Source: a virus. Taken from it: 64,000 bases of DNA. Where the stretch lies: the UHGV virus genome UHGV-0086135; one strand, 5' to 3'. The translations under genes were made by a program, and so were the position numbers. This document shows, piece by piece, positions 12,090-47,800 of the stretch. Below the pieces are notes generated by a model that made no database searches, was not told the DNA's origin, and saw only the letters and a list, made by a program, of their open reading frames with translations. The stretch's first letter is position 1, and every line of letters begins with the position of its first letter.

Positions 12090-13118
12090 ATGTCATCAAT
12101 ACCTTGGATTGATAATGAGTTTGCATACCGCGCATTAGCTCATTTACCTAAATTCACACAAGTAAATAATAGTTCAACTTTTAAATTGCGGTTTAGATGC
12201 CCTGTTTGTGGAGATTCAAAAACCGACCAAAATAAAGCCCGTGGATGGTATTATGGTGATAATAATGAAGGAAATATTCATTGTTATAACTGCAACTATC
12301 ATGCACCAATCGGAATATATTTAAAGGAGTTTGAACCTGATTTATATCGTGAGTATATCTTTGAAATAAGAAAAGAAAAAGGTAAAAGTCGTCCAGTAGA
12401 AAAGCCTAAAGAACTTCCTAAACAACCTGAGAAGAAAATAATTAAATCTCTTCCGTCATGTATTAGATTAGATAAACTGGCGGAAGACCATCCAATTATA
12501 AAATATGTAAAAGCTCGTTGTATTCCAAAGGATAAATGGAAATATCTTTGGTTTACAACCGAATGGCCTAAATTAGTTAATAGCATAGCACCAGGAACAT
12601 ATAAAAAGGAAATACCTGAGCCTCGTCTTGTTATTCCAATTTATAATGCTAATGGAAAAGCTGAGTCTTTTCAAGGACGTGCATTAAAGAAAGATGCTCC
12701 TCAAAAATATATCACCATCAAAGCTTATCCTGAGGCAACAAAAATTTATGGAGTTGAACGAGTCAAAGATGGTGATGTATATGTTCTAGAAGGACCTATA
12801 GATTCACTTTTTATTGAAAATGGTATAGCTATTACGGGCGGTCAATTAGACCTAGAAATTGTTCCATTTAAAGATAGACGTGTGTGGGTTTTAGATAATG
12901 AACCTCGTCACCCTGACACTATTAAACGAATGACTAAATTAGTTGATGCAGGAGAAAGGGTTATGTTTTGGGATAAATCTCCCTGGAAATCAAAAGATGT
13001 TAATGATATGATTAGAAAGGAAGGTGCAACCCCTAAACAAATTATGGAATATATGAAAAATAATATTGCCCAAGGGTTGATGGCTAAAATGCGGCTATCT
13101 AAATACGCTAAGATTTAA
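12090..13118 (+). CDS. 61: DNA primase gp61
   Basis: 342 aa as T4 gp61; N-terminal zinc ribbon CPVCGDS...HCYNCNYH; toprim-like EGPIDSLF. Confidence 0.9.
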   Translation: MSSIPWIDNEFAYRALAHLPKFTQVNNSSTFKLRFRCPVCGDSKTDQNKARGWYYGDNNEGNIHCYNCNYHAPIGIYLKEFEPDLYREYIFEIRKEKGKSRPVEKPKELPKQPEKKIIKSLPSCIRLDKLAEDHPIIKYVKARCIPKDKWKYLWFTTEWPKLVNSIAPGTYKKEIPEPRLVIPIYNANGKAESFQGRALKKDAPQKYITIKAYPEATKIYGVERVKDGDVYVLEGPIDSLFIENGIAITGGQLDLEIVPFKDRRVWVLDNEPRHPDTIKRMTKLVDAGERVMFWDKSPWKSKDVNDMIRKEGATPKQIMEYMKNNIAQGLMAKMRLSKYAKI

Positions 13119-13315
13119 ATTAACCCAACTAAAGCAAATGCTAAATCTACGAATGTATCAAGAGTAATTACTGGAATATTAACACCATGAGCAATAGCAA
13201 TTGGTGATAAAACAAAATTCCAGAGTAAAATTCCTACCATAGCAGAAATAGTAAAAGCTATACGTTTTTTATTACCTTTTATGGCATTAACAAGTGCCAT
13301 TAATTTTTGTACCAT
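13115..13315 (-). CDS. small hydrophobic membrane protein (66 aa) on opposite strand
   Basis: Minus-strand ORF with AAGGAGG SD 5 nt upstream of ATG; two predicted TM helices; convergent with gene 61. Confidence 0.55.
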   Translation of the reverse strand: MVQKLMALVNAIKGNKKRIAFTISAMVGILLWNFVLSPIAIAHGVNIPVITLDTFVDLAFALVGLI

Positions 13316-31080: not shown

Positions 31081-31570
31081 CTTGACTAGTGAAATGAAGG
31101 TCAAAATTGCTGATACAGCAAGATACTCTTTAAAACAAAACCCGAACCAGGATAAAGCAGAAGTTATCGAAAGATGTCGTATCGCGGTGTACGCAGAGTT
31201 TTTTGTAGCAGATTGGCTAAGCGGGTATGTTAACAAAGGCCAAGAGGATGTTAATGACCCGTATACATACGCATGGGATGTATTGGCGCATCCAAGATAC
31301 TGCGGGCTTCGTGTAGAAGTTAAGACACATCAAACTGACTCGCGTTGGATTTCGGTAACAACAGGATGCAGCGGAGAGTATCCATACGGTTCTGGAATAA
31401 ATCTAGGGCCCATTCTGAATCATCAGGTCGCTGACTGTATAATTATATTCAACACTAAAGAAATTCATCCAGGTGTCATCCAGTACACTCCGAAGTTCAT
31501 CGGTGATAGAGAAGACCTTCGTAAGGTTGTAAGAAAAAGCAACTACAACGGATGGTATCTTTCCATTTAA
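31013..31570 (+). CDS. denB: possible endonuclease IV DenB
   Basis: 185 aa, same length as T4 DenB, located between rIIB and ndd; AAGGAAAG SD before ATG 31013; overlaps upstream ORF by 68 nt. Confidence 0.45.
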   Translation: MQKTNPGLQRLFQIPTFTLSNSDLTSEMKVKIADTARYSLKQNPNQDKAEVIERCRIAVYAEFFVADWLSGYVNKGQEDVNDPYTYAWDVLAHPRYCGLRVEVKTHQTDSRWISVTTGCSGEYPYGSGINLGPILNHQVADCIIIFNTKEIHPGVIQYTPKFIGDREDLRKVVRKSNYNGWYLSI

Positions 31571-31587
31571 AAATTTTCACAAAACGG

Positions 31588-31616
31588 TTTACATATCACA
31601 AGGACTGTGGTACTAT
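31588..31616 (+). promoter_or_regulatory. early promoter in cassette (copy B)
   Basis: -35 TTTACA, 17 nt, TGGTACTAT; leader identical to copy A over 43 nt. Confidence 0.65.
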
Positions 31617-31650
31617 ACAACTATCAACTGATACGGATTTGGAGAATAAA

Positions 31651-31857
31651 ATGTTTACTACGGCTGAATTAAAACGAGCAAAAGCTAAGAAAGGGCAAGG
31701 AAAATATAAAGCTGAATTAGTTAAAGAACTTCAGTTTGCTGAGGCTGAATTGAATTCGATGATTATTCAAAATGCTCCAGAAACTGAAATTGCTCTTAAA
31801 CGTATTGCGAATAAATGTCTTCGTGATACAATCGTCGATCTTTTAGCGGATTATTGA
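31651..31857 (+). CDS. hypothetical protein (68 aa)
   Basis: ATG 31651 preceded by the conserved cassette leader; ORF-track start 31552 lies upstream of the promoter. Confidence 0.5.
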   Translation: MFTTAELKRAKAKKGQGKYKAELVKELQFAEAELNSMIIQNAPETEIALKRIANKCLRDTIVDLLADY

Positions 31858-32126
31858 GTAAAATGAAATTTAAATTTTATTGCGCTAAACATAAAATAAC
31901 TGATGAGTTTGTGTCAGTTGAATATTCTAGCGATGATGAAGGCATGATTTATACTCGTTTGGGATTATCACACTGGGAGTCTGATACGCCTTATTTTTCA
32001 ACTCCCGAAGAAATTACACGCTTAGTTAATGGTCATATGAATGACCACTGGGATGTAATTCTTTCAGATAGTCTTAAAGCGGCTATTAATAGTAATGAAA
32101 TGAAAATCGCTGAGATTGAACTATGA
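31854..32126 (+). CDS. hypothetical protein (90 aa)
   Basis: ATGA overlap with upstream ORF. Confidence 0.45.
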   Translation: MSKMKFKFYCAKHKITDEFVSVEYSSDDEGMIYTRLGLSHWESDTPYFSTPEEITRLVNGHMNDHWDVILSDSLKAAINSNEMKIAEIEL

Positions 32127-32209
32127 GTTCATTATGGTGGTGTTTTGTTTGGTTAATTAGTATTCCATTGATTTGTTTAGTATTTACTTTTGTGATGAGG
32201 TTATTATGA
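32123..32209 (+). CDS. tiny hydrophobic peptide (28 aa)
   Basis: MSSLWWCFVWLISIPLICLVFTFVMRLL; ATGA overlap; speculative. Confidence 0.3.
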   Translation: MSSLWWCFVWLISIPLICLVFTFVMRLL

Positions 32210-32304
32210 AAATTTTGAATTCTGTGCTTATTGCTTGTGCGTGGTGGGTTGCGCAAGTTTCAGCGGTAGTAGTTGGTATTCACATTTATTACGAATATTT
32301 TTAA
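32206..32304 (+). CDS. tiny hydrophobic peptide (32 aa)
   Basis: MKILNSVLIACAWWVAQVSAVVVGIHIYYEYF; ATGA overlap; speculative. Confidence 0.3.
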   Translation: MKILNSVLIACAWWVAQVSAVVVGIHIYYEYF

Positions 32305-32312
32305 AAAAGTTG

Positions 32313-32342
32313 TTTACAAGACTGTTCCTCTGTGGTACTATA
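32313..32342 (+). promoter_or_regulatory. early promoter in cassette
   Basis: -35 GTTTACA, 18 nt, TGGTACTAT. Confidence 0.6.
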
Positions 32343-32369
32343 CAACTATCAACTACGGAGGAACAGAAA

Positions 32370-32483
32370 ATGAAAAAGATTGTTAAAGCTATATGGAATG
32401 TAGTTATAATACTAGTAGTTTTGAGTATATTCCCAATCGTTTTAATGATTGATGTATTAAACGCTTACTTTGGATTTATGTGA
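32370..32483 (+). CDS. tiny hydrophobic peptide (37 aa)
   Basis: ATG 32370 with GGAGGA SD behind early promoter; single TM helix. Confidence 0.4.
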   Translation: MKKIVKAIWNVVIILVVLSIFPIVLMIDVLNAYFGFM

Positions 32484-32490
32484 GGAAAAT

Positions 32491-32688
32491 ATGAAGCGTA
32501 AACGCAGTGCTTTTACATTTGTTGAATGGTTTTTCGATAATATTTTTCCGGCTTTATTCATTTTCATGCTGATTTTCGCCTTAGGTTCAGTTGTAGTTGG
32601 AATTTATTTGATGGCAGTTGTCGGAATGGATATTCACCAAAATGGCTTAAAATCTGTAGTTGAAACAATTTGGAATGGTGTAAAATGA
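32491..32688 (+). CDS. small membrane protein (65 aa)
   Basis: ATG 32491 with GAGGA SD; long hydrophobic stretch. Confidence 0.45.
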   Translation: MKRKRSAFTFVEWFFDNIFPALFIFMLIFALGSVVVGIYLMAVVGMDIHQNGLKSVVETIWNGVK

Positions 32689-32795
32689 TGAATTTGCTGA
32701 GCGGTTGGTTTTATATTCTCGTGTTTTACATTGGTGCAAATTTTCCGTATTGGATGGGATGGTCAACAACTGCATTCGGATTTTATACTCCTTGA
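32685..32795 (+). CDS. tiny hydrophobic peptide (36 aa)
   Basis: ATGATG start overlapping upstream stop; aromatic-rich TM. Confidence 0.3.
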   Translation: MMNLLSGWFYILVFYIGANFPYWMGWSTTAFGFYTP

Positions 32796-32803
32796 GGTGA
32801 ATT

Positions 32804-33019
32804 ATGAAAATTTTTAAAGATGTAAAAGTTGGTGAAATTTTTTGTTTAGATAATGGTGATCAGTTAATTCGTATTTCACCTCTTAAGAGCACTAGCGAGA
32901 AAATGACAGTTAACGCTACTTTAGAAAACAACAGTAATGAGCGTTTCTGCATTGAAAATGATACTGAAACTTATACCGTAGAAGAGTTCTGGGAATTGAG
33001 CGTCGACTGTGACGATTAA
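32804..33019 (+). CDS. hypothetical protein (71 aa)
   Basis: ORF with GAGG SD. Confidence 0.45.
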   Translation: MKIFKDVKVGEIFCLDNGDQLIRISPLKSTSEKMTVNATLENNSNERFCIENDTETYTVEEFWELSVDCDD

Positions 33020-33079
33020 TTTATTGGCCGTGTGTATTCATGCGGCCTTGGAGTAGAAAATAATTTAGAGGAAATTAAT

Positions 33080-33535
33080 ATGAAATACATGACTGTTACT
33101 GATCTGAATAATGCAGGCGCAACTGTTATTGGTACAATCAAGGGCGGTGAATGGGTTTTTGGAACTCCGCATAAAGACATTTTGTCTAAACCTGGATTTT
33201 ACTTTTTAGTGAGCAAATTTGGTGGTCCATTTGATAGTCCATGTGTATCTGCGCGATTTTATGTAGGTAATCAGCGTTCTAAGCAAGGGTTCAGTGCAGT
33301 TCTAAGTCATATTCGTCAACGTCGGTCTCAGCTTGCGCGTACTATTGCAAATAACAATGTTCCATACACAGTATTTTATTTGCCTGCTTCTAAGATGAAA
33401 CCTCTGACGACGGGATTTGGAAAAGGTCAGTTAGCTTTGGCGTTTACTCGTAATCATCATTCTGAGTATCAAACGCTTGAAGAAATGAACCGTATGTTGG
33501 CTGATAACTTTAAATTTGTTTTGCAGGCATATTAA
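33080..33535 (+). CDS. ndd: nucleoid disruption protein Ndd
   Basis: 151 aa from ATG 33080 (T4 Ndd 151 aa); [14 protein letters not shown]-terminus recalled from T4; GAGGA SD. Confidence 0.8.
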
Positions 33536-33615
33536 TGAGTAATTTCCATAACGAACATGTGATGCAGTTCTATCGTAACAATCTTAAAACCAAAGGCGTC
33601 TTCGGACGCCAGTGA
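33535..33615 (+). CDS. stp: Stp peptide (26 aa)
   Basis: [26 protein letters not shown] matches recalled T4 Stp; TAATG overlap with ndd stop. Confidence 0.8.
33595..33610 (+). other. UUCG-tetraloop hairpin embedded in the last codons of stp
   Basis: GGCGUC-UUCG-GACGCC, 3 nt before the stp stop and just 5' of the ac SD. Confidence 0.6.
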
Positions 33616-33622
33616 GGAAAAT

Positions 33623-33781
33623 ATGAATATTGCAAAATTATTAGGAGTTATTTCATTTATTTGTTGGATAGTAGCATGTGTTTTAACTATCTGTATCGAT
33701 GCTAGTAGTGTGTTTTCACAAGCTTTAGCCCAGGGTATGTGTGCATATTTAACATTTGTGTTGTTATCTACTAATGATTAA
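33623..33781 (+). CDS. ac: Ac (acridine sensitivity) membrane protein
   Basis: 52-aa hydrophobic protein directly after stp as in T4. Confidence 0.6.
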   Translation: MNIAKLLGVISFICWIVACVLTICIDASSVFSQALAQGMCAYLTFVLLSTND

Positions 33782-33914
33782 GAAAATCTTGGGCTATTCA
33801 TTAGCCCTTGCTACTTTATTGGTAGCACTATATTATGGAGTAATGTTCGGATTAATTCAAGTCGTGCTTTTCATTTCTGATGTTATTATGGCACTACATT
33901 CACTAGTATGGTAA
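33774..33914 (+). CDS. small hydrophobic membrane peptide (46 aa)
   Basis: Overlaps ac stop; two hydrophobic segments; ends 4 nt before gene 52. Confidence 0.35.
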   Translation: MIKKILGYSLALATLLVALYYGVMFGLIQVVLFISDVIMALHSLVW

Positions 33915-33918
33915 ATTT

Positions 33919-35247
33919 ATGCAACTGAATAATCGCGATTTAAAAAGTATCATTGATAATGAAGCATTGGCTTATGCTATGTACACGGTTGAAAATCGTG
34001 CTATCCCAAATATGATTGATGGATTTAAGCCAGTTCAACGATTTGTTATTGCTCGAGCTCTTGATTTGGCACGAGGAAATAAAGATAAGTTTCACAAACT
34101 CGCTTCTATTGCAGGTGGTGTAGCGGACCTTGGATATCATCATGGTGAAAACTCTGCACAAGACGCGGGCGCTTTGATGGCTAACACTTGGAATAATAAC
34201 TTTCCTTTGTTAGATGGTCAAGGAAACTTTGGTTCTCGTACCGTTCAAAAAGCAGCGGCAAGTCGTTATATTTTTGCTCGTGTAAGTAAAAATTTCTATA
34301 ACGTATATAAAGATACTGAATATGCTCCGGTACATCAAGATAAAGAACACATTCCGCCTGCTTTCTATTTGCCTATTATTCCTACTGTTCTTCTTAACGG
34401 TGTTTCCGGTATTGCAACTGGTTATGCAACTTACATTCTTCCTCATAGCGTTTCTTCTGTCAAGAAAGCTGTATTGCAAGCTCTTCAAGGAAAGAAAGTA
34501 ACTAAACCGAAGGTAGAATTCCCAGAATTTCGCGGTGAAGTCGTTGAAATTGACGGTCAATATGAAATTCGTGGAACGTACAAGTTTACTTCACGAACTC
34601 AAATGCATATCACTGAGATTCCGTATAAGTATGATCGTGAAACTTATGTGAGTAAAATCTTAGACCCGCTTGAAGATAAAGGCTTCATTACGTGGGATGA
34701 TGCTTGTGGTGAGCATGGTTTTGGCTTCAAAGTTAAATTCCGTAAAGAATATTCTTTGAGCGATAACGAAGAAGAACGCCATGCAAAAATTATGAAAGAC
34801 TTCGGGTTGATTGAGCGTCGTTCCCAGAATATTACTGTTATTAATGAGAAAGGAAAGCTACAAGTTTACGATAACGTAGTTGATTTAATCAAAGACTTCG
34901 TTGAAGTTCGTAAAACTTATGTCCAAAAACGAATTGATAACAAAATCAAAGAAACTGAATCGGCATTTCGTTTAGCCTTTGCCAAGGCACATTTCATTAA
35001 GAAAGTAATTTCAGGTGAAATTGTTGTACAAGGTAAAACTCGCAAAGAACTGACCGAAGAACTTTCTAAAATTGATATGTATTCTTCTTATGTTGATAAA
35101 CTAGTTGGAATGAATATTTTTCATATGACTTCCGACGAAGCAAAGAAACTTGCTGAAGAAGCTAAAGCTAAAAAAGAAGAAAACGAATATTGGAAAACTA
35201 CTGATGTAGTTACAGAATACACCAAAGATTTAGAGGAAATCAAATGA
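33919..35247 (+). CDS. 52: DNA topoisomerase II medium subunit gp52 (GyrA-like)
   Basis: 442 aa as T4 gp52; GyrA-like N-terminal region. Confidence 0.9.
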   Translation: MQLNNRDLKSIIDNEALAYAMYTVENRAIPNMIDGFKPVQRFVIARALDLARGNKDKFHKLASIAGGVADLGYHHGENSAQDAGALMANTWNNNFPLLDGQGNFGSRTVQKAAASRYIFARVSKNFYNVYKDTEYAPVHQDKEHIPPAFYLPIIPTVLLNGVSGIATGYATYILPHSVSSVKKAVLQALQGKKVTKPKVEFPEFRGEVVEIDGQYEIRGTYKFTSRTQMHITEIPYKYDRETYVSKILDPLEDKGFITWDDACGEHGFGFKVKFRKEYSLSDNEEERHAKIMKDFGLIERRSQNITVINEKGKLQVYDNVVDLIKDFVEVRKTYVQKRIDNKIKETESAFRLAFAKAHFIKKVISGEIVVQGKTRKELTEELSKIDMYSSYVDKLVGMNIFHMTSDEAKKLAEEAKAKKEENEYWKTTDVVTEYTKDLEEIK

Positions 35248-35393
35248 GTCCATTCATAGGTATTACAAGCGCTGCATTAGTATCTGGTGGCATTTTACTG
35301 GCGGGTTTAGGTGTTGTTCCTGCCGTAGCAGGAGGTCTTCTTGCGTTCGGAATTCAACGTGTTATCATGATAGTTATCACAGTCATGCAGTAA
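35244..35393 (+). CDS. small membrane peptide (49 aa)
   Basis: ATGA overlap with gene 52 stop; hydrophobic; followed by terminator hairpin. Confidence 0.4.
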   Translation: MSPFIGITSAALVSGGILLAGLGVVPAVAGGLLAFGIQRVIMIVITVMQ

Positions 35394-44886: not shown

Positions 44887-47800
44887 TTATTCAATCCACT
44901 CAAATTTAACAGTTTTATTCACTGGGTCAGGAATAATGCGAACATTACCAATTCGTAAGAAATCACGAATAGTAAGATTACCTATTATTCCATTATCAGA
45001 TGGAATTGCTCCTATATCCGAAGGTTGAGGAGGGTTACCTCCATCAAATACCTGAACAAAACTTGACCAAGAGTTTTTAGTTTTTTGCCATGTACGTGTC
45101 CAGCGAGTGGTACGTGCTTCTGGAGTCGTTGGATAAGTAATCCAATCTTGGTAAAGTGAATCAAGTGTGTTACCAAACTGAGTCAATGTACCAGGAGATT
45201 TAACTTCTTCGCCACGTTCTAAGTATGGAAGTCCAGTCACTTCATTAGTTTTTTCAACCATTTTAAAATAACCCGGGAACTGGTTATAAGTGGCTGAATC
45301 ATTAATATCGATTGACCAGAATCCTACAGTATCAGATGTTGGCGCACGGGTATATAAATCAGGTGTTTTAACACCTTGAGAACGAATTCTCGAGTTAACA
45401 GTTAAACCACCTGAATTTATAGTAGCACCTTTAGCAATGATCAAGCTTTCACCAATCGTTACTTGACCGGACTGATTATTAATTGATAATGGACGTAATG
45501 CATTAAATCCACCAGTTTGGTCACCGGCTGCAGTGAGCATAAAATAGGTGTCATTACCAGCGTTACGAATAAAGAATCCGTAATTTCCATTTATCGCTCT
45601 AAAAGCATTTGGCGATTTACCGATAAATTCACCATTGGCTGTAACTGAATTACCAAATGTTGCAACGCCATTCGCATTCAATGTTCCTGAAGCATTCACA
45701 TTTATCGGTGTTACTGTACCGTTGATATTAAATGTTATATTACCAGCTTTATTACGCTGAGAATAAAAATGACTAGACGTTTCATCACTAACTTCAAATA
45801 CGGTAGAACGTGTTGTATCTGATTCCCCACTAAATTGATTTCCCCACACTTTGACAGTCATCGTCTGCGCTGGGTTCGTTCCAGTTTGAGGTCCTTTCTC
45901 AAAAATCAATTGAGTTGCTGTTCCAGTATTAGAAATAGTTAGTGTACTATTTGCTGAAACTGATCCACCAAATGTAGCAGTACTAGATGATACAAGAGGG
46001 GCACTCAGGTTCGTTTGTTTGGTTAAGGTTAGTGAACCATTAACTGTCTGGGCAATATCCCTACGAATGAACTGAGATGAATCTAGACCATCTAATAAAT
46101 TTGCGTCAGCAGCTTTTGCTTTTAACGGCAAATAATTTGCTAATACACGGTTTAATTCATATGGTGATACTGCATAGCTATTTTTCTCGTATAATTCTAA
46201 TGACTGTGTTGAACCAACTGTATCATTACCAACGAATGTAATTGAACCAGATGAAGTTTTAACAAAACCTCTTACCAAAGTAGTTGCTGCCCAAGTAGGT
46301 TCACTCTGCACAATCCATTTTAAATTTTTTGGAGATACAGCAGTATTTGCTGACGTTCCAGTCACGGTTTCAGACTGAGTTGCAACTTTAATAACGCCTT
46401 CTTGTGCTTCAGTAGATTTAGTACCTAAAAGCTTTTTAGGAGTTATCAAAACGTTATCTAATTTTCCTGCAGCAGCTTCAACTTGTGTAGCTACACGAAG
46501 TGTACCACGTTGTGTCTCATTTGCTTCAAGAATATTAAGGGTATAATGGTCCCAGAGAGTTCCTGATTCAACTAATCCAGATAGAGCAACAACAGAAGTA
46601 CGATTAGTACTATCAAATCTAGTTTTAATTTTTAATGGTGTAGAGATACGAGTATCGTCGACGCCTGCGTCGAATTCAACTTGTGTAGCAATTTCAGCTA
46701 TACCACTTAAACTTTCAGTTGCTTTACGGTCATTTAAAGTTTTAGGAGTGACTGCACGAGTATAATCAGTTCCTGTATTAACTTCACTTTGCGTAGCAAT
46801 TTCAATTAAACCAATTCTTCCATCAGTTGATGTCTTTTTATGTAACGTTTCTGGTGTTACAACCGCATTTGCCCATCCTTCTTGGCTTTGTCCAGCAATT
46901 ACTTCACTTTCAACTGCTAAAATTACTGCACCTTGTTGCGTTGGAGTAGCTTTATACTGATCCAAAGCTTTAGGCGAAACAACTAAATTATTAGTATTTT
47001 TATTATAAACATTTGTACCATTTAATTCACGACTAGAGGCTGGAGTAGCTCCTGCGGTAGATACAAAAGTTACAATACCCGATAATGTTTCAGAACCTTG
47101 ACGAGCTTGAAGCTTTTTAGGAGTGATGATTGTAGTATCATCAGTACCTGTATTAGTTTCCTGCTGCGTAGCAATTTCAGCGACACCTCTACGAGTTTCT
47201 GTAGCAGTTCTTTCATTCAGCTTTTTAGGAGTGATGATAAGGTCATCAGCAAAAGAGAATGTAGTGTTCTGATTTACTTGAGCAGTAGTTGCTATTCTTG
47301 CGATACCTCTACGAGTTTCTGTAGCAGTACGGTTAGCTAATGTTTCTGGAGTAATTGCTAATTCTTTTTGTGGAGAATTTTCTAAATCGACGTTAGCTTG
47401 AGCTTGTGTAGCTAAAGCAATTACGCCTAATCTTGCTCTAGTAGAATTATTTAAAGAATCGACTCTTTCAACTGTTGGAACGTTTTGCTGTACAACCCAG
47501 TATTTTCCGTCAGAATCTTCTATATAAGCAAGTTGTAAAACTGGAACATAATTAGTTTCACCGTTAAAAACTAATTCTTGAACAGTCACCCATTCAGCTT
47601 CAGGTGGATATTCTGAGCGTTTTGGGAATTGCAGCAATTGAACTGAAGAAGCAATTTTATCTTCACCGGCAGCTTTGATTTTAACTGTTTGTCCTTTTCT
47701 CATGTAATTCATGGAAATTTTAACAGTATCACCAACAGAAATATTAGTTGGAAGCTGAAGCTCAATTGTTTGAGTTGTTCCGTTATTCGCACCAAATACC

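Follow-up and report, generated by a model that had tools for sequence, protein, structure and literature searches.

The closest described counterparts of the genes studied here are ndd.6 to ndd.2 of phage T4, which were annotated in T4 decades ago and already have entries in PHROGs and Pfam. RNA-seq places the T4 ndd.2–ndd.6 transcripts in the "early" class, a kinetic assignment that belongs to T4 and not to the phage described here (PMC9697503 Table S2). Time-resolved LC-MS of T4 infection gave "NA" for all five peptides, which are of a kind that is nearly invisible to tryptic proteomics; the ndd.1 protein was seen early in T4 proteomics (PMC9697503 Table S2). The T4 product labels "outer membrane" and "periplasmic" given to these genes are old localization predictions. 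A literature search found no T4 Ribo-seq study and no mention of DUF7248.

Knock-down by CRISPRi-ART scores the ndd.2–ndd.6 genes as "Not Fit" (PMC11879866), and the HIDEN-SEQ transposon screen scores them as "Non-essential". T4 transposon screens showed no depletion in the presence of RexAB, a membrane-depolarizing abortive infection system (log2FC +0.07 to +0.14, q = 1), with RnlAB, in minimal medium, or on the uropathogenic isolate CFE299. For the Bas37 orthologues, neither of two host comparisons showed a change (q = 1). In such single-insertion screens redundancy could mask effects, and the five genes, individually dispensable, are probably condition-specific or partly redundant.

The one phenotype that has been assigned to this region concerns phospholipids. 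The saΔ9 deletion, which extends from 52.1 to denB, is viable with a burst of about 50%; T4-induced phosphatidylglycerol (PG) synthesis is abolished in this mutant and blunted in the overlapping rIIΔDD2, and the authors stated that no known gene there explains the loss and that a membrane location is assumed for several of the products (PMC6071114). The phenotype is mapped only to a deletion of ~3.4 kb in which denB, ndd, ndd.1, stp, ac, and 52.1 are missing as well; its source is one review of largely unpublished data from the 1990s, and an earlier study cited there found no PG stimulation (PMC6071114). Here we add comparative evidence that all five genes encode selected peptides, and we correct the gene models (a 65-aa ndd.3/2a, an alternative ndd.2 start, and a coupling ORF for ndd.6).

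Locus and gene layout

The window, that is, the whole 64,000-nt stretch of DNA that was analyzed, comes from a Tequatrovirus (T4-like phage). A megablast search matched 575 phage records, 424 of which cover at least 80% of the query at 90%–99% identity, with annotations running from denB to ndd; the region is carried by ~490 Tequatrovirus genomes. Five ORFs of 28, 32, 37, 65, and 36 aa occupy positions 32123–32795 of the + strand, with the lengths given in the initial annotation. They are the T4 orthologues ndd.6, ndd.5, ndd.4, ndd.3+ndd.2a, and ndd.2, situated between denB and ndd, and their amino acid identity to the T4 counterparts is 88%–100%. The order is identical in the T4 annotation (NC_000866, T4p275–T4p270). 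All five are already members of PHROG families, and the 65-aa ORF is DUF7248 in Pfam. The remark that most of them fall under gene-calling cutoffs agrees with the GenBank records, which annotate from two to five of the five, varying by record. The initial annotation was right in taking these ORFs as real genes of an early region with one predicted transmembrane (TM) helix each; it did not recognize them as T4 genes ndd.2–ndd.6, and the anti-defense role that it offered was not supported.

A consensus scan revealed two T4-early-type promoter matches on the + strand, both of the form TTTACA-17-TACTAT with an upstream TG. The first (31588..31616) lies just after denB and is followed, on the same strand, by orfA (31651..31857; 68-aa soluble protein, RB32ORF266c-like, phrog_4535), orfB (31863..32126; 87-aa soluble protein, RB69ORF270c-like, phrog_2390), ndd.6 (32123..32209; 28 aa, phrog_8851), and ndd.5 (32206..32304; 32 aa, phrog_5011). 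The second (32313..32341) lies between ndd.5 and ndd.4. Downstream of it, also on the + strand, are ndd.4 (32370..32483; 37 aa, phrog_3098), ndd.3/ndd.2a (32491..32688; 65 aa, PF23906 or DUF7248, phrog_2401), ndd.2 (32685..32795; 36 aa, phrog_4135), and ndd.1 (32804..33019), which encodes a 71-aa acidic soluble protein and closes the second unit ahead of ndd (33080–33535). The first match would drive orfA, orfB, ndd.6, and ndd.5, and the second would drive ndd.4, ndd.3/2a, ndd.2, and ndd.1. The sequence block with the first match also precedes the cluster in T4, and a block of ~90 nt holding the second is repeated at several sites in T4-like genomes. The two matches and the "early" class of the T4 transcripts (PMC9697503 Table S2) agree with the placement of the cluster in an early region.

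The Shine–Dalgarno (SD) sequences are GGAGGA before ndd.4, GAGGA before ndd.3/2a, and GAGG before ndd.5, and they are weak for ndd.6 and ndd.2. Two ATGA overlaps had been counted previously; there are actually three, at 32123 (orfB/ndd.6), 32206 (ndd.6/ndd.5), and 32685 (ndd.3/2a/ndd.2). Four of 20 relatives have ATA as the first codon of ndd.2, so translation may really begin at the second ATG (32688), which would give a product of 35 aa.

This phage and T4 share the locus, the gene order, the lengths, and the family assignments. They differ in orfA and orfB, which stand between denB and ndd.6 here and are absent from T4. In T4, T2, and RB3 only the last eight codons of orfB are left, as a mini-ORF that is still coupled to ndd.6, and this eight-codon coupling ORF has outlived two different deletions. 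The two phages also differ in that the T4 reference splits ndd.3 and ndd.2a, whereas this phage encodes an intact 65-aa protein. The split arises from a 1-nt deletion that only the reference sequence has, and direct evidence for the extra base in T4 comes from T4 "wild" (KJ477684). The 82-nt "ndd.3" of the HIDEN-SEQ annotation only hints at the extra base in that T4 stock.

Conservation and membrane character of the five peptides

The dN/dS values of the five ORFs were 0.08–0.16 in the annotated frame and 0.67–2.64 in shifted frames. Loss of the reading frames in close relatives had been named as an outcome that would speak against the genes; the frames are intact in 17–20 of 20 Tequatrovirus copies. 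Protein-level homologues of ndd.4, ndd.3/2a, ndd.6, and ndd.2, with locus and order kept, were found in other T4-like genera, in loci where Ndd itself is only 46%–66% identical, and motifs are kept at 25%–60% identity between genera whose synonymous sites have reached saturation. The families have been gained and lost independently between genera, each keeping its own start and SD. Seven TM-like mini-ORFs with a 4-mer SD occur in the 64-kb window, compared with a mean of 0.7 in mononucleotide shuffles, and three of the seven fall in this 0.6-kb stretch. Purifying selection and cross-genus conservation put the ORFs beyond chance, and we are confident that the five are genuine membrane micro-protein genes.

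The two micro-protein genes of the first unit differ in their distribution. The ndd.6 product matches the phrog_8851 profile over residues 1–28 of 28 (E 4.8e-16), is 92%–100% identical to the copies of the T4 group (Tequatrovirus), where its position is unchanged, and has a dN/dS of 0.16. It consists of one hydrophobic helix with a conserved WC..W..IP..C motif, and its homologues occur in eight non-Tequatrovirus loci. The ndd.5 product matches phrog_5011 over residues 1–32 of 32 (E 3.6e-26) with 93%–100% identity to Tequatrovirus copies; its dN/dS is 0.12 and codon position 3 holds 9 of the 13 variable sites. No ndd.5 homologue was found in the other genera sampled.

ndd.4 forms the nearly universal core of the cluster and was found in 26 of the 31 non-Tequatrovirus loci. 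It has a full-length match to phrog_3098 (E 3.1e-21) and is 55%–61% identical in genera whose Ndd is 56%–63% identical. The peptide has a basic N-terminus (KK..K), one TM helix, and an aromatic C-terminal tail, and Asp28 is invariant in 11 of 11 aligned sequences. An exhaustive search for ndd.4 returned T4-like relatives and nothing beyond them. RNA structure was considered as the cause of the missing synonymous variation in this gene and was ruled out (z = −0.84).

The 65-aa ndd.3/2a product matches PF23906 with 71.8 bits against a gathering cut-off of 27, and has a dN/dS of 0.08, with 23 of 33 variable sites in codon position 3. A basic N-terminus and one long TM helix are followed by a conserved C-terminal GLKSVVExIWNG. 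Across 34 sequences of this tail, G52 and K54 are invariant and L53, S55, W61, and G63 are at least 90% conserved. A single-sequence search gave only near-identical proteins, and an alignment query was used instead; it returned 143 clusters, in which all named or long-contig members come from T4-like phages. The ndd.2 product matches phrog_4135 over its full length (E 2.2e-24), has a dN/dS of 0.11, and is intact in all 20 Tequatrovirus copies. It has no charged residues and is 33% aromatic, and the motif FY[IV]G.N..YW[LM]G is present in 9/9 cross-genus homologues (nine loci of other genera). These comparisons identify ndd.4 and the DUF7248 protein as the conserved core of the cluster.

Nonsense or frameshift alleles of ndd.3/2a occur naturally in T2, ELT1, and the T4 reference, and ndd.6 is broken in L005; individual members can thus be lost. 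In-frame fusions that place the ndd.3/2a tail on the helix of another member are found in viable phages (ndd.4::2a in Sf25 and ndd.5::2a in T4_583L).

Each ORF has one strongly hydrophobic stretch, in line with the single, aromatic-rich TM helix first described for it. The best 19-residue Kyte–Doolittle means are 2.57 for ndd.6, 2.17 for ndd.5, 3.05 for ndd.4, 2.71 for ndd.3/2a, and 1.29 for ndd.2, and W, F, and Y together make up 14%–33% of the five peptides. The AlphaFold2 model of the 65-aa ndd.3/2a is one long helix (pLDDT 89–96). The positive-inside bias is consistent. An N-in/C-out topology is predicted for ndd.4 and ndd.3/2a, and ndd.2 is predicted to be membrane-embedded or interfacial with an ambiguous orientation.

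Possible roles of the peptides

The explanation that we prefer, and hold tentatively, is that the five peptides are accessory inner-membrane modulators with a mechanism that involves lipid synthesis. The five genes would be transcribed from the two early-type promoters and translated through their own SDs or by ATGA coupling, and each product would be a bitopic inner-membrane micro-protein. The tails of ndd.4, with its invariant Asp and aromatics, and of ndd.3/2a, with GLKSVVExIWNG, would face the periplasm. Acting in the first minutes of infection, the peptides may re-tune envelope physiology by binding proteins or lipids of the host inner membrane. A role in manipulation of the membrane had been suggested from the start, and the single lead to it is indirect, namely the effect of saΔ9 on phospholipids (PMC6071114). 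The five genes would be the most plausible candidates for this old phenotype, with one or more of the peptides most plausibly responsible for the T4-specific stimulation of PG synthesis. Against the modulator role stands the lack of a single-gene phenotype in any condition examined. A more specific proposal, which we consider improbable, is that the colinear set (ndd.6 > ndd.4 > ndd.3/2a > ndd.2, plus ndd.5 in Tequatrovirus) forms one hetero-oligomeric inner-membrane complex that switches phospholipid synthesis to PG or neutralizes a membrane-embedded defense effector. Redundant helices would explain why single-gene screens missed such a complex, and the Sf25 and T4_583L fusions would fit interchangeable anchors that present one functional tail.

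Some of the same observations could be read as counter-defense, in which the peptides insert beside membrane-anchored abortive-infection or effector proteins and block them. The neighborhood is rich in takeover and counter-defense genes (rIIA/B against RexAB, stp with PrrC, arn against McrBC, ndd, and denB), and the five are early and non-essential and differ between genera in which of them are present, as is typical of anti-defense islands. Blocking peptides would matter only on hosts with the cognate system, and HIDEN-SEQ found that many T4 "dark" genes are conditionally essential on particular hosts only. However, none of the five genes was depleted with RexAB, RnlAB, in minimal medium, or on CFE299, and the Bas37 comparisons were equally flat; the anti-defense role first suggested is not supported. 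"ndd" is mentioned 0 times in the HIDEN-SEQ main text, and these genes are not among its new anti-defense genes. The sole match to PADLOC models was that of ndd.4 to KwaA (13.8 bits, E 0.0085), which covers the TM segment and is compositional, and NCBIfam and PDB sequence searches of the peptides gave nothing meaningful. We regard counter-defense as rather unlikely. Superinfection exclusion, through periplasm-facing tails that alter the inner membrane or periplasm and block the DNA of later T-even phages, draws on the early expression, the predicted N-in/C-out topology, which would place conserved tails in the periplasm, and the precedent of Imm and Sp, small T4 envelope proteins. Pooled lytic-growth screens are blind to exclusion, and their negative results are no argument against it. 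It is nevertheless doubtful, and to a greater degree than counter-defense: exclusion is credited to imm and sp in T4 genetics, and they are annotated so in the screen and expression tables; a Pfam scan of the five proteins (E up to 1) found DUF7248 only and no Imm or Sp family; and we know of no residual T4 exclusion that has been mapped to the denB–ndd interval.

The peptides also resemble small membrane toxins in size, hydrophobicity, and aromatic content, and they might depolarize or permeabilize the inner membrane in the manner of type I toxins and thereby shut down the host. Small immediate-early T4 genes are often host-lethal when cloned (Kutter et al.), and membrane stressors likewise raise the PG:PE ratio (PMC6071114). 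Such "monkey-wrench" toxins are a quite improbable explanation, given that the invariant GLK...G and Asp outside the membrane indicate specific contacts and not generic disruption. T4 DNA entry and growth require an energized membrane, and early depolarization would be self-harming. Pfam and NCBIfam searches (E up to 1) gave no match to Hok, Ldr, TisB, Ibs, ShoB, or holin families, and the literature search gave no report of toxicity for these particular genes. It is very improbable that the products are irrelevant, with the ORFs serving to keep ribosomes on an early polycistronic mRNA (through coupling or protection from Rho and RNase) or being fragments of a decayed multi-pass protein. The three ATGA overlaps, the tight packing, the failure of LC-MS to detect the proteins, and the absence of a phenotype would agree with this, and five consecutive single helices are superficially like a divided multi-pass protein. 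However, the amino acid sequence itself is conserved, as seen in the low dN/dS and the cross-genus motifs, and the split organization is identical in all genera, which is not that of a recent pseudogenization. Both the translation-only and the split-polytopic forms were rejected in view of the selection data, the independent gains and losses of the families, and the promoter between ndd.5 and ndd.4.

Comparison with known small membrane proteins

The ndd.2–ndd.6 genes form a membrane micro-protein set in the best-studied phage. Type I toxins (Hok, TisB, Ldr, Ibs, ShoB) are alike in size, hydrophobicity, and aromatics but share no family with the peptides. T4 Imm and Sp resemble the ndd.x products in being small, early envelope proteins that the phage can do without in the laboratory; Imm, with two helices, is larger, and Sp is secreted into the periplasm. 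In bacteria, AcrZ, MgrB, MgtS, SgrT, PmrR, CydX, and KdpF are bitopic proteins of ~30–50 aa that bind a larger membrane protein. Regulators of the AcrZ/MgrB type are dispensable under standard conditions and hard to detect by MS; the analogy to the ndd.x peptides is functional only, and the sequences are unrelated.

The nearest parallels are found in T4 itself. Ac (52 aa), 52.1 (46 aa), MotA.1 (49 aa), and Stp (26 aa) belong to the same early dispensable stretch and the same size class, and the first three are single-helix membrane peptides like ndd.2–ndd.6; no sequence similarity was detected between these four and the ndd.2–ndd.6 peptides. Genetic phenotypes are known for Ac and Stp but for none of ndd.2–ndd.6. 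Ac and Stp are both tiny T4 products with specific effects on the envelope or on host proteins: Stp is an effector peptide, and Ac changes the handling of acridine, a mode of action to which that of the proposed modulators would be much alike.

Gene content of the denB-ndd interval

Five consecutive ORFs occupy positions 32123-32795 (+) of UHGV-0086135: ndd.6 (32123-32209, 28 aa), ndd.5 (32206-32304, 32 aa), ndd.4 (32370-32483, 37 aa), ndd.3/2a (32491-32688, 65 aa), and ndd.2 (32685-32795, 36 aa). The run reported in the initial annotation is real and was properly described; its coordinates and lengths were confirmed. Each ORF encodes one strongly hydrophobic segment (best 19-residue Kyte-Doolittle means of 2.57, 2.17, 3.05, 2.71, and 1.29, in gene order), and W, F, and Y make up 14-33% of the residues, in agreement with the aromatic-rich peptides claimed. 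The three Shine-Dalgarno (SD) sequences were also found: GGAGGA for ndd.4, GAGGA for ndd.3/2a, and GAGG for ndd.5. ATGA coupling held as well, with three overlaps (32123, 32206, and 32685) instead of the two counted before; ndd.6 and ndd.2 depend on such start/stop overlaps. In the 64-kb window, seven mini-ORFs with a 4-mer SD and a transmembrane (TM)-like segment were found versus a mean of 0.7 in shuffled sequences, three of the seven within the cluster.

A megablast search with 31500-33600 matched 575 phage records. Query coverage was ≥80%, at 90-99% identity, in 424 of them, nearly all Escherichia or Shigella Tequatrovirus and annotated from the DenB endonuclease IV through to the Ndd nucleoid-disruption protein. 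The T4 reference (NC_000866) has the order denB, ndd.6 (87 nt), ndd.5 (99 nt), ndd.4, ndd.3, ndd.2a, ndd.2 (111 nt), ndd.1, and ndd. Because of these matches and this annotation, the five ORFs are identified from sequence as orthologues of T4 ndd.6, ndd.5, ndd.4, ndd.3 plus ndd.2a, and ndd.2; their amino acid identity to Tequatrovirus copies was 88-100%. The set is already annotated and is not new. The peptides belong to PHROG families 8851 (ndd.6), 5011 (ndd.5), 3098 (ndd.4), 2401 (ndd.3/2a), and 4135 (ndd.2), with E values of about 1e-16 to 1e-30. The ndd.3/2a product passes the Pfam DUF7248 threshold (71.8 bits; threshold 27), and its relatives already bear the NCBI name "DUF7248 family protein." Several GenBank/RefSeq records give "naphthalene 1,2-dioxygenase" as the product of ndd.4 or ndd.2 orthologues; in others the label is "outer membrane protein" or "periplasmic protein." Profile searches gave no support for these labels, which are propagated annotations.

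Micro-proteins also occur downstream of ndd: stp (33535-33615, 26 aa) and, with predicted TM segments, ac (33623-33781, 52 aa), 52.1 (33774-33914, 46 aa), and motA.1 (35244-35393, 49 aa). The stretch from denB to motA thus holds about eight predicted TM peptides of <70 aa. Two more SD-preceded mini-ORFs with a TM-like segment lie elsewhere, at 13115-13315 (-; 66 aa) and 47126-47272 (+; 48 aa).

Corrected gene models and allelic variants

The T4 reference is one base short immediately downstream of the start codon of ndd.3/2a (ATGAA-CGT vs. ATGAAGCGT); the other 18 aligned Tequatrovirus sequences have the ATGAAGCGT form. The split of this gene into T4 "ndd.3" (26 aa) and "ndd.2a" (40 aa) results from the missing base, and "ndd.3", a PHROG singleton, is read out of frame. 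In T4 strain "wild" (KJ477684), the 65-aa protein is intact. The missing base is either a mutation specific to the reference or a sequencing error, and it has been propagated into many annotations.

With no good SD of its own, ndd.6 is in every case coupled through ATGA to the ORF that precedes it. In the window, two soluble ORFs absent from T4, orfA (31651-31857) and orfB (31863-32126), lie between denB and ndd.6; T2 and RB3 lack orfB. In these deletion forms an eight-codon remnant, MKI[A/V]EIEL, with its own SD keeps the coupling to ndd.6 (positions 101-127 in the compared loci of KJ477684, T2, and L046; counterpart region 32095-32126 in the window). The deletions seem to have arisen between copies of a repeated AAAATGAAA sequence.

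Other alleles alter the products. A premature stop cuts ndd.3/2a to 44 aa, with loss of the conserved tail, in T2 (PV648363; locus positions 492-626) and phage ELT1, and in one IMG/VR genome (L005, 2043-2294) ndd.6 carries a 2-nt insertion that extends the reading frame to 83 aa. Shigella phage Sf25 gp120 is an in-frame ndd.4::ndd.3/2a fusion, and the multi-deletion laboratory mutant T4_583L has an in-frame ndd.5::ndd.2a fusion. These are two independent in-frame deletions that joined the N-terminus and TM helix of ndd.4 or ndd.5 to the conserved C-terminal tail of ndd.3/2a; each encodes a single-pass chimera, and both phages are viable.

Selection, conservation, and expression

Over 19 unique Tequatrovirus sequences, in-frame dN/dS was 0.16 for ndd.6, 0.12 for ndd.5, 0.08 for ndd.3/2a, and 0.11 for ndd.2, compared with 0.67-2.64 for the identical stretches in shifted frames; 23 of the 33 variable sites of ndd.3/2a fell at third codon positions. 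The frames, whose loss from close relatives had been named initially as a refutation, were generally kept: 19 of 20 Tequatrovirus copies were intact for ndd.6, ndd.5, and ndd.4, 17 for ndd.3/2a, and all 20 for ndd.2, with sporadic loss alleles. In ndd.4, the diversity minimum of the 1.45-kb denB-ndd stretch, synonymous variation was near zero (pS 0.005 vs. 0.10-0.23 in neighbours; one of 37 third positions variable). RNA structure was rejected as the cause, the predicted structure being unremarkable (z = -0.84).

We also examined 36 IMG/VR loci anchored on the neighbouring Ndd protein, so that small-ORF loss would show. The denB-ndd synteny is maintained across T4-like genera. Identity was 55-61% for ndd.4 homologues, where Ndd had 56-63%, and 39-55% for ndd.6, 28-51% for ndd.3/2a, and 34-48% for ndd.2. 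By profile iteration, the 31 non-Tequatrovirus loci yielded ndd.4-like (26), ndd.3/2a-like (13), ndd.2-like (9), and ndd.6-like (8) genes in the colinear order ndd.6, ndd.4, ndd.3/2a, ndd.2; ndd.5 was restricted to Tequatrovirus. Conserved features include an invariant Asp28 in ndd.4, the C-terminal tail GLKSVVExIWNG in ndd.3/2a (G52 and K54 invariant, n = 34 sequences), WC..W..IP..C in ndd.6, and FY[IV]G.N..YW[LM]G in ndd.2. DUF7248 comprises 143 clusters at 90% identity, and the named members and long contigs listed are all T4-like phages of about 165-175 kb from Escherichia, Klebsiella, Enterobacter, and Serratia. An exhaustive HMMER search of 1.84 billion representatives with ndd.4 gave six clusters, all T4-like, while NCBIfam, PADLOC, and PDB sequence searches with the peptides gave no meaningful match.

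Some of these loci carry additional genes. L036 (1075-2468) has, between its orfA-like and ndd.4-like genes, a 202-aa ORF and a 263-aa ORF with a DPPY motif, which looks like an inserted DNA methyltransferase cassette. In the non-Tequatrovirus loci L025-L027, L033, and L039, an extra zinc-ribbon-like ORF of 41-62 aa with CxxC...C spacing (CYECGK...AHAEC; e.g., L025 2780-2905) is interleaved with the membrane peptides.

Matches to the T4 early promoter (TTTACA-17-TACTAT with upstream TG) at 31588-31616 and 32313-32341 would divide the cluster into orfA-orfB-ndd.6-ndd.5 and ndd.4-ndd.3/2a-ndd.2-ndd.1. In T4, RNA-seq placed ndd.2, 2a, 3, 4, 5, and 6 in the "early" class, and LC-MS detected Ndd and Ndd.1 and none of the ndd.2-ndd.6 proteins (PMC9697503, Table S2). 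A literature search found no T4 Ribo-seq study. Support for translation of the five ORFs is therefore indirect, through selection.

Predicted products and possible function

AlphaFold2 modelled ndd.3/2a (34-sequence alignment) as three helices: a short N-terminal one, a long one at residues 19-51 (pLDDT 89-96 over residues 11-40), and a C-terminal one with the conserved motif at lower confidence. By positive-inside analysis, ndd.4 and ndd.3/2a are predicted to be N-in/C-out in all genera; ndd.5 is predicted to be N-in and ndd.6 weakly C-in, and ndd.2 (uncharged, 33% aromatic) gave no call. The products are predicted to be bitopic micro-proteins of the inner membrane whose short conserved tails face the periplasm.

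The genes ndd.2-ndd.6 are early, selected, and dispensable. They fall inside the dispensable T4 deletion saΔ9 (52.1 to denB), whose mutant yields about 50% of wild-type (PMC6071114). CRISPRi-ART rated ndd.1-ndd.6 "Not Fit" (PMC11879866, supplementary file 15), and HIDEN-SEQ transposon sequencing rated all of the set "Non-essential." Inhibition of membrane-bound defence effectors, as initially proposed, is so far unsupported by these screens. HIDEN-SEQ showed no shift (|log2FC| ≤0.51, q = 1) in the RnlAB comparison, with RexAB, in M9 versus LB, or on the uropathogenic isolate CFE299; with RexAB, rIIA was down 8.6 and rIIB 6.8 log2 units. The orthologues bas37_0103-0107 of Bas37, a Tequatrovirus with the gene set of the window, including an intact 198-nt ndd.3/2a, were flat in two host comparisons. 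Other defence systems and possible redundancy leave room for counter-defence, which the flat RexAB and CFE299 data weaken, and we regard it as unlikely.

Superinfection exclusion lies outside what the published screens measure. T4 exclusion is classically credited to imm and sp, and a role here for the peptides seems quite improbable. Slightly less probable again is that they are depolarising toxins, since their extramembrane motifs are conserved and T4 requires an energised membrane. That the products are irrelevant, or remnants of a decayed polytopic protein, is very hard to credit: the selection data contradict it, the families were gained and lost independently, and there is a predicted internal promoter.

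Wild-type T4 sharply stimulates phosphatidylglycerol (PG) synthesis in the first 13 min; the stimulation is abolished in saΔ9, and its PG-specific effect is lost in the partly overlapping rIIΔDD2 (PMC6071114). The authors remarked that known genes in the interval are unrelated to lipid synthesis and that a number of its products are believed to be membrane proteins (PMC6071114). No other phenotype mapped there lacks an explanation among the known genes of the interval. We tentatively propose, at somewhat below even chances, that the peptides are accessory modulators that, in the early phase of infection, would bind components of the host inner membrane and re-tune envelope physiology, and that one or more of them may cause the PG stimulation. 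The analysis is of value for its corrected gene models and for offering a specific link, open to experiment, with this old PG phenotype of T4.
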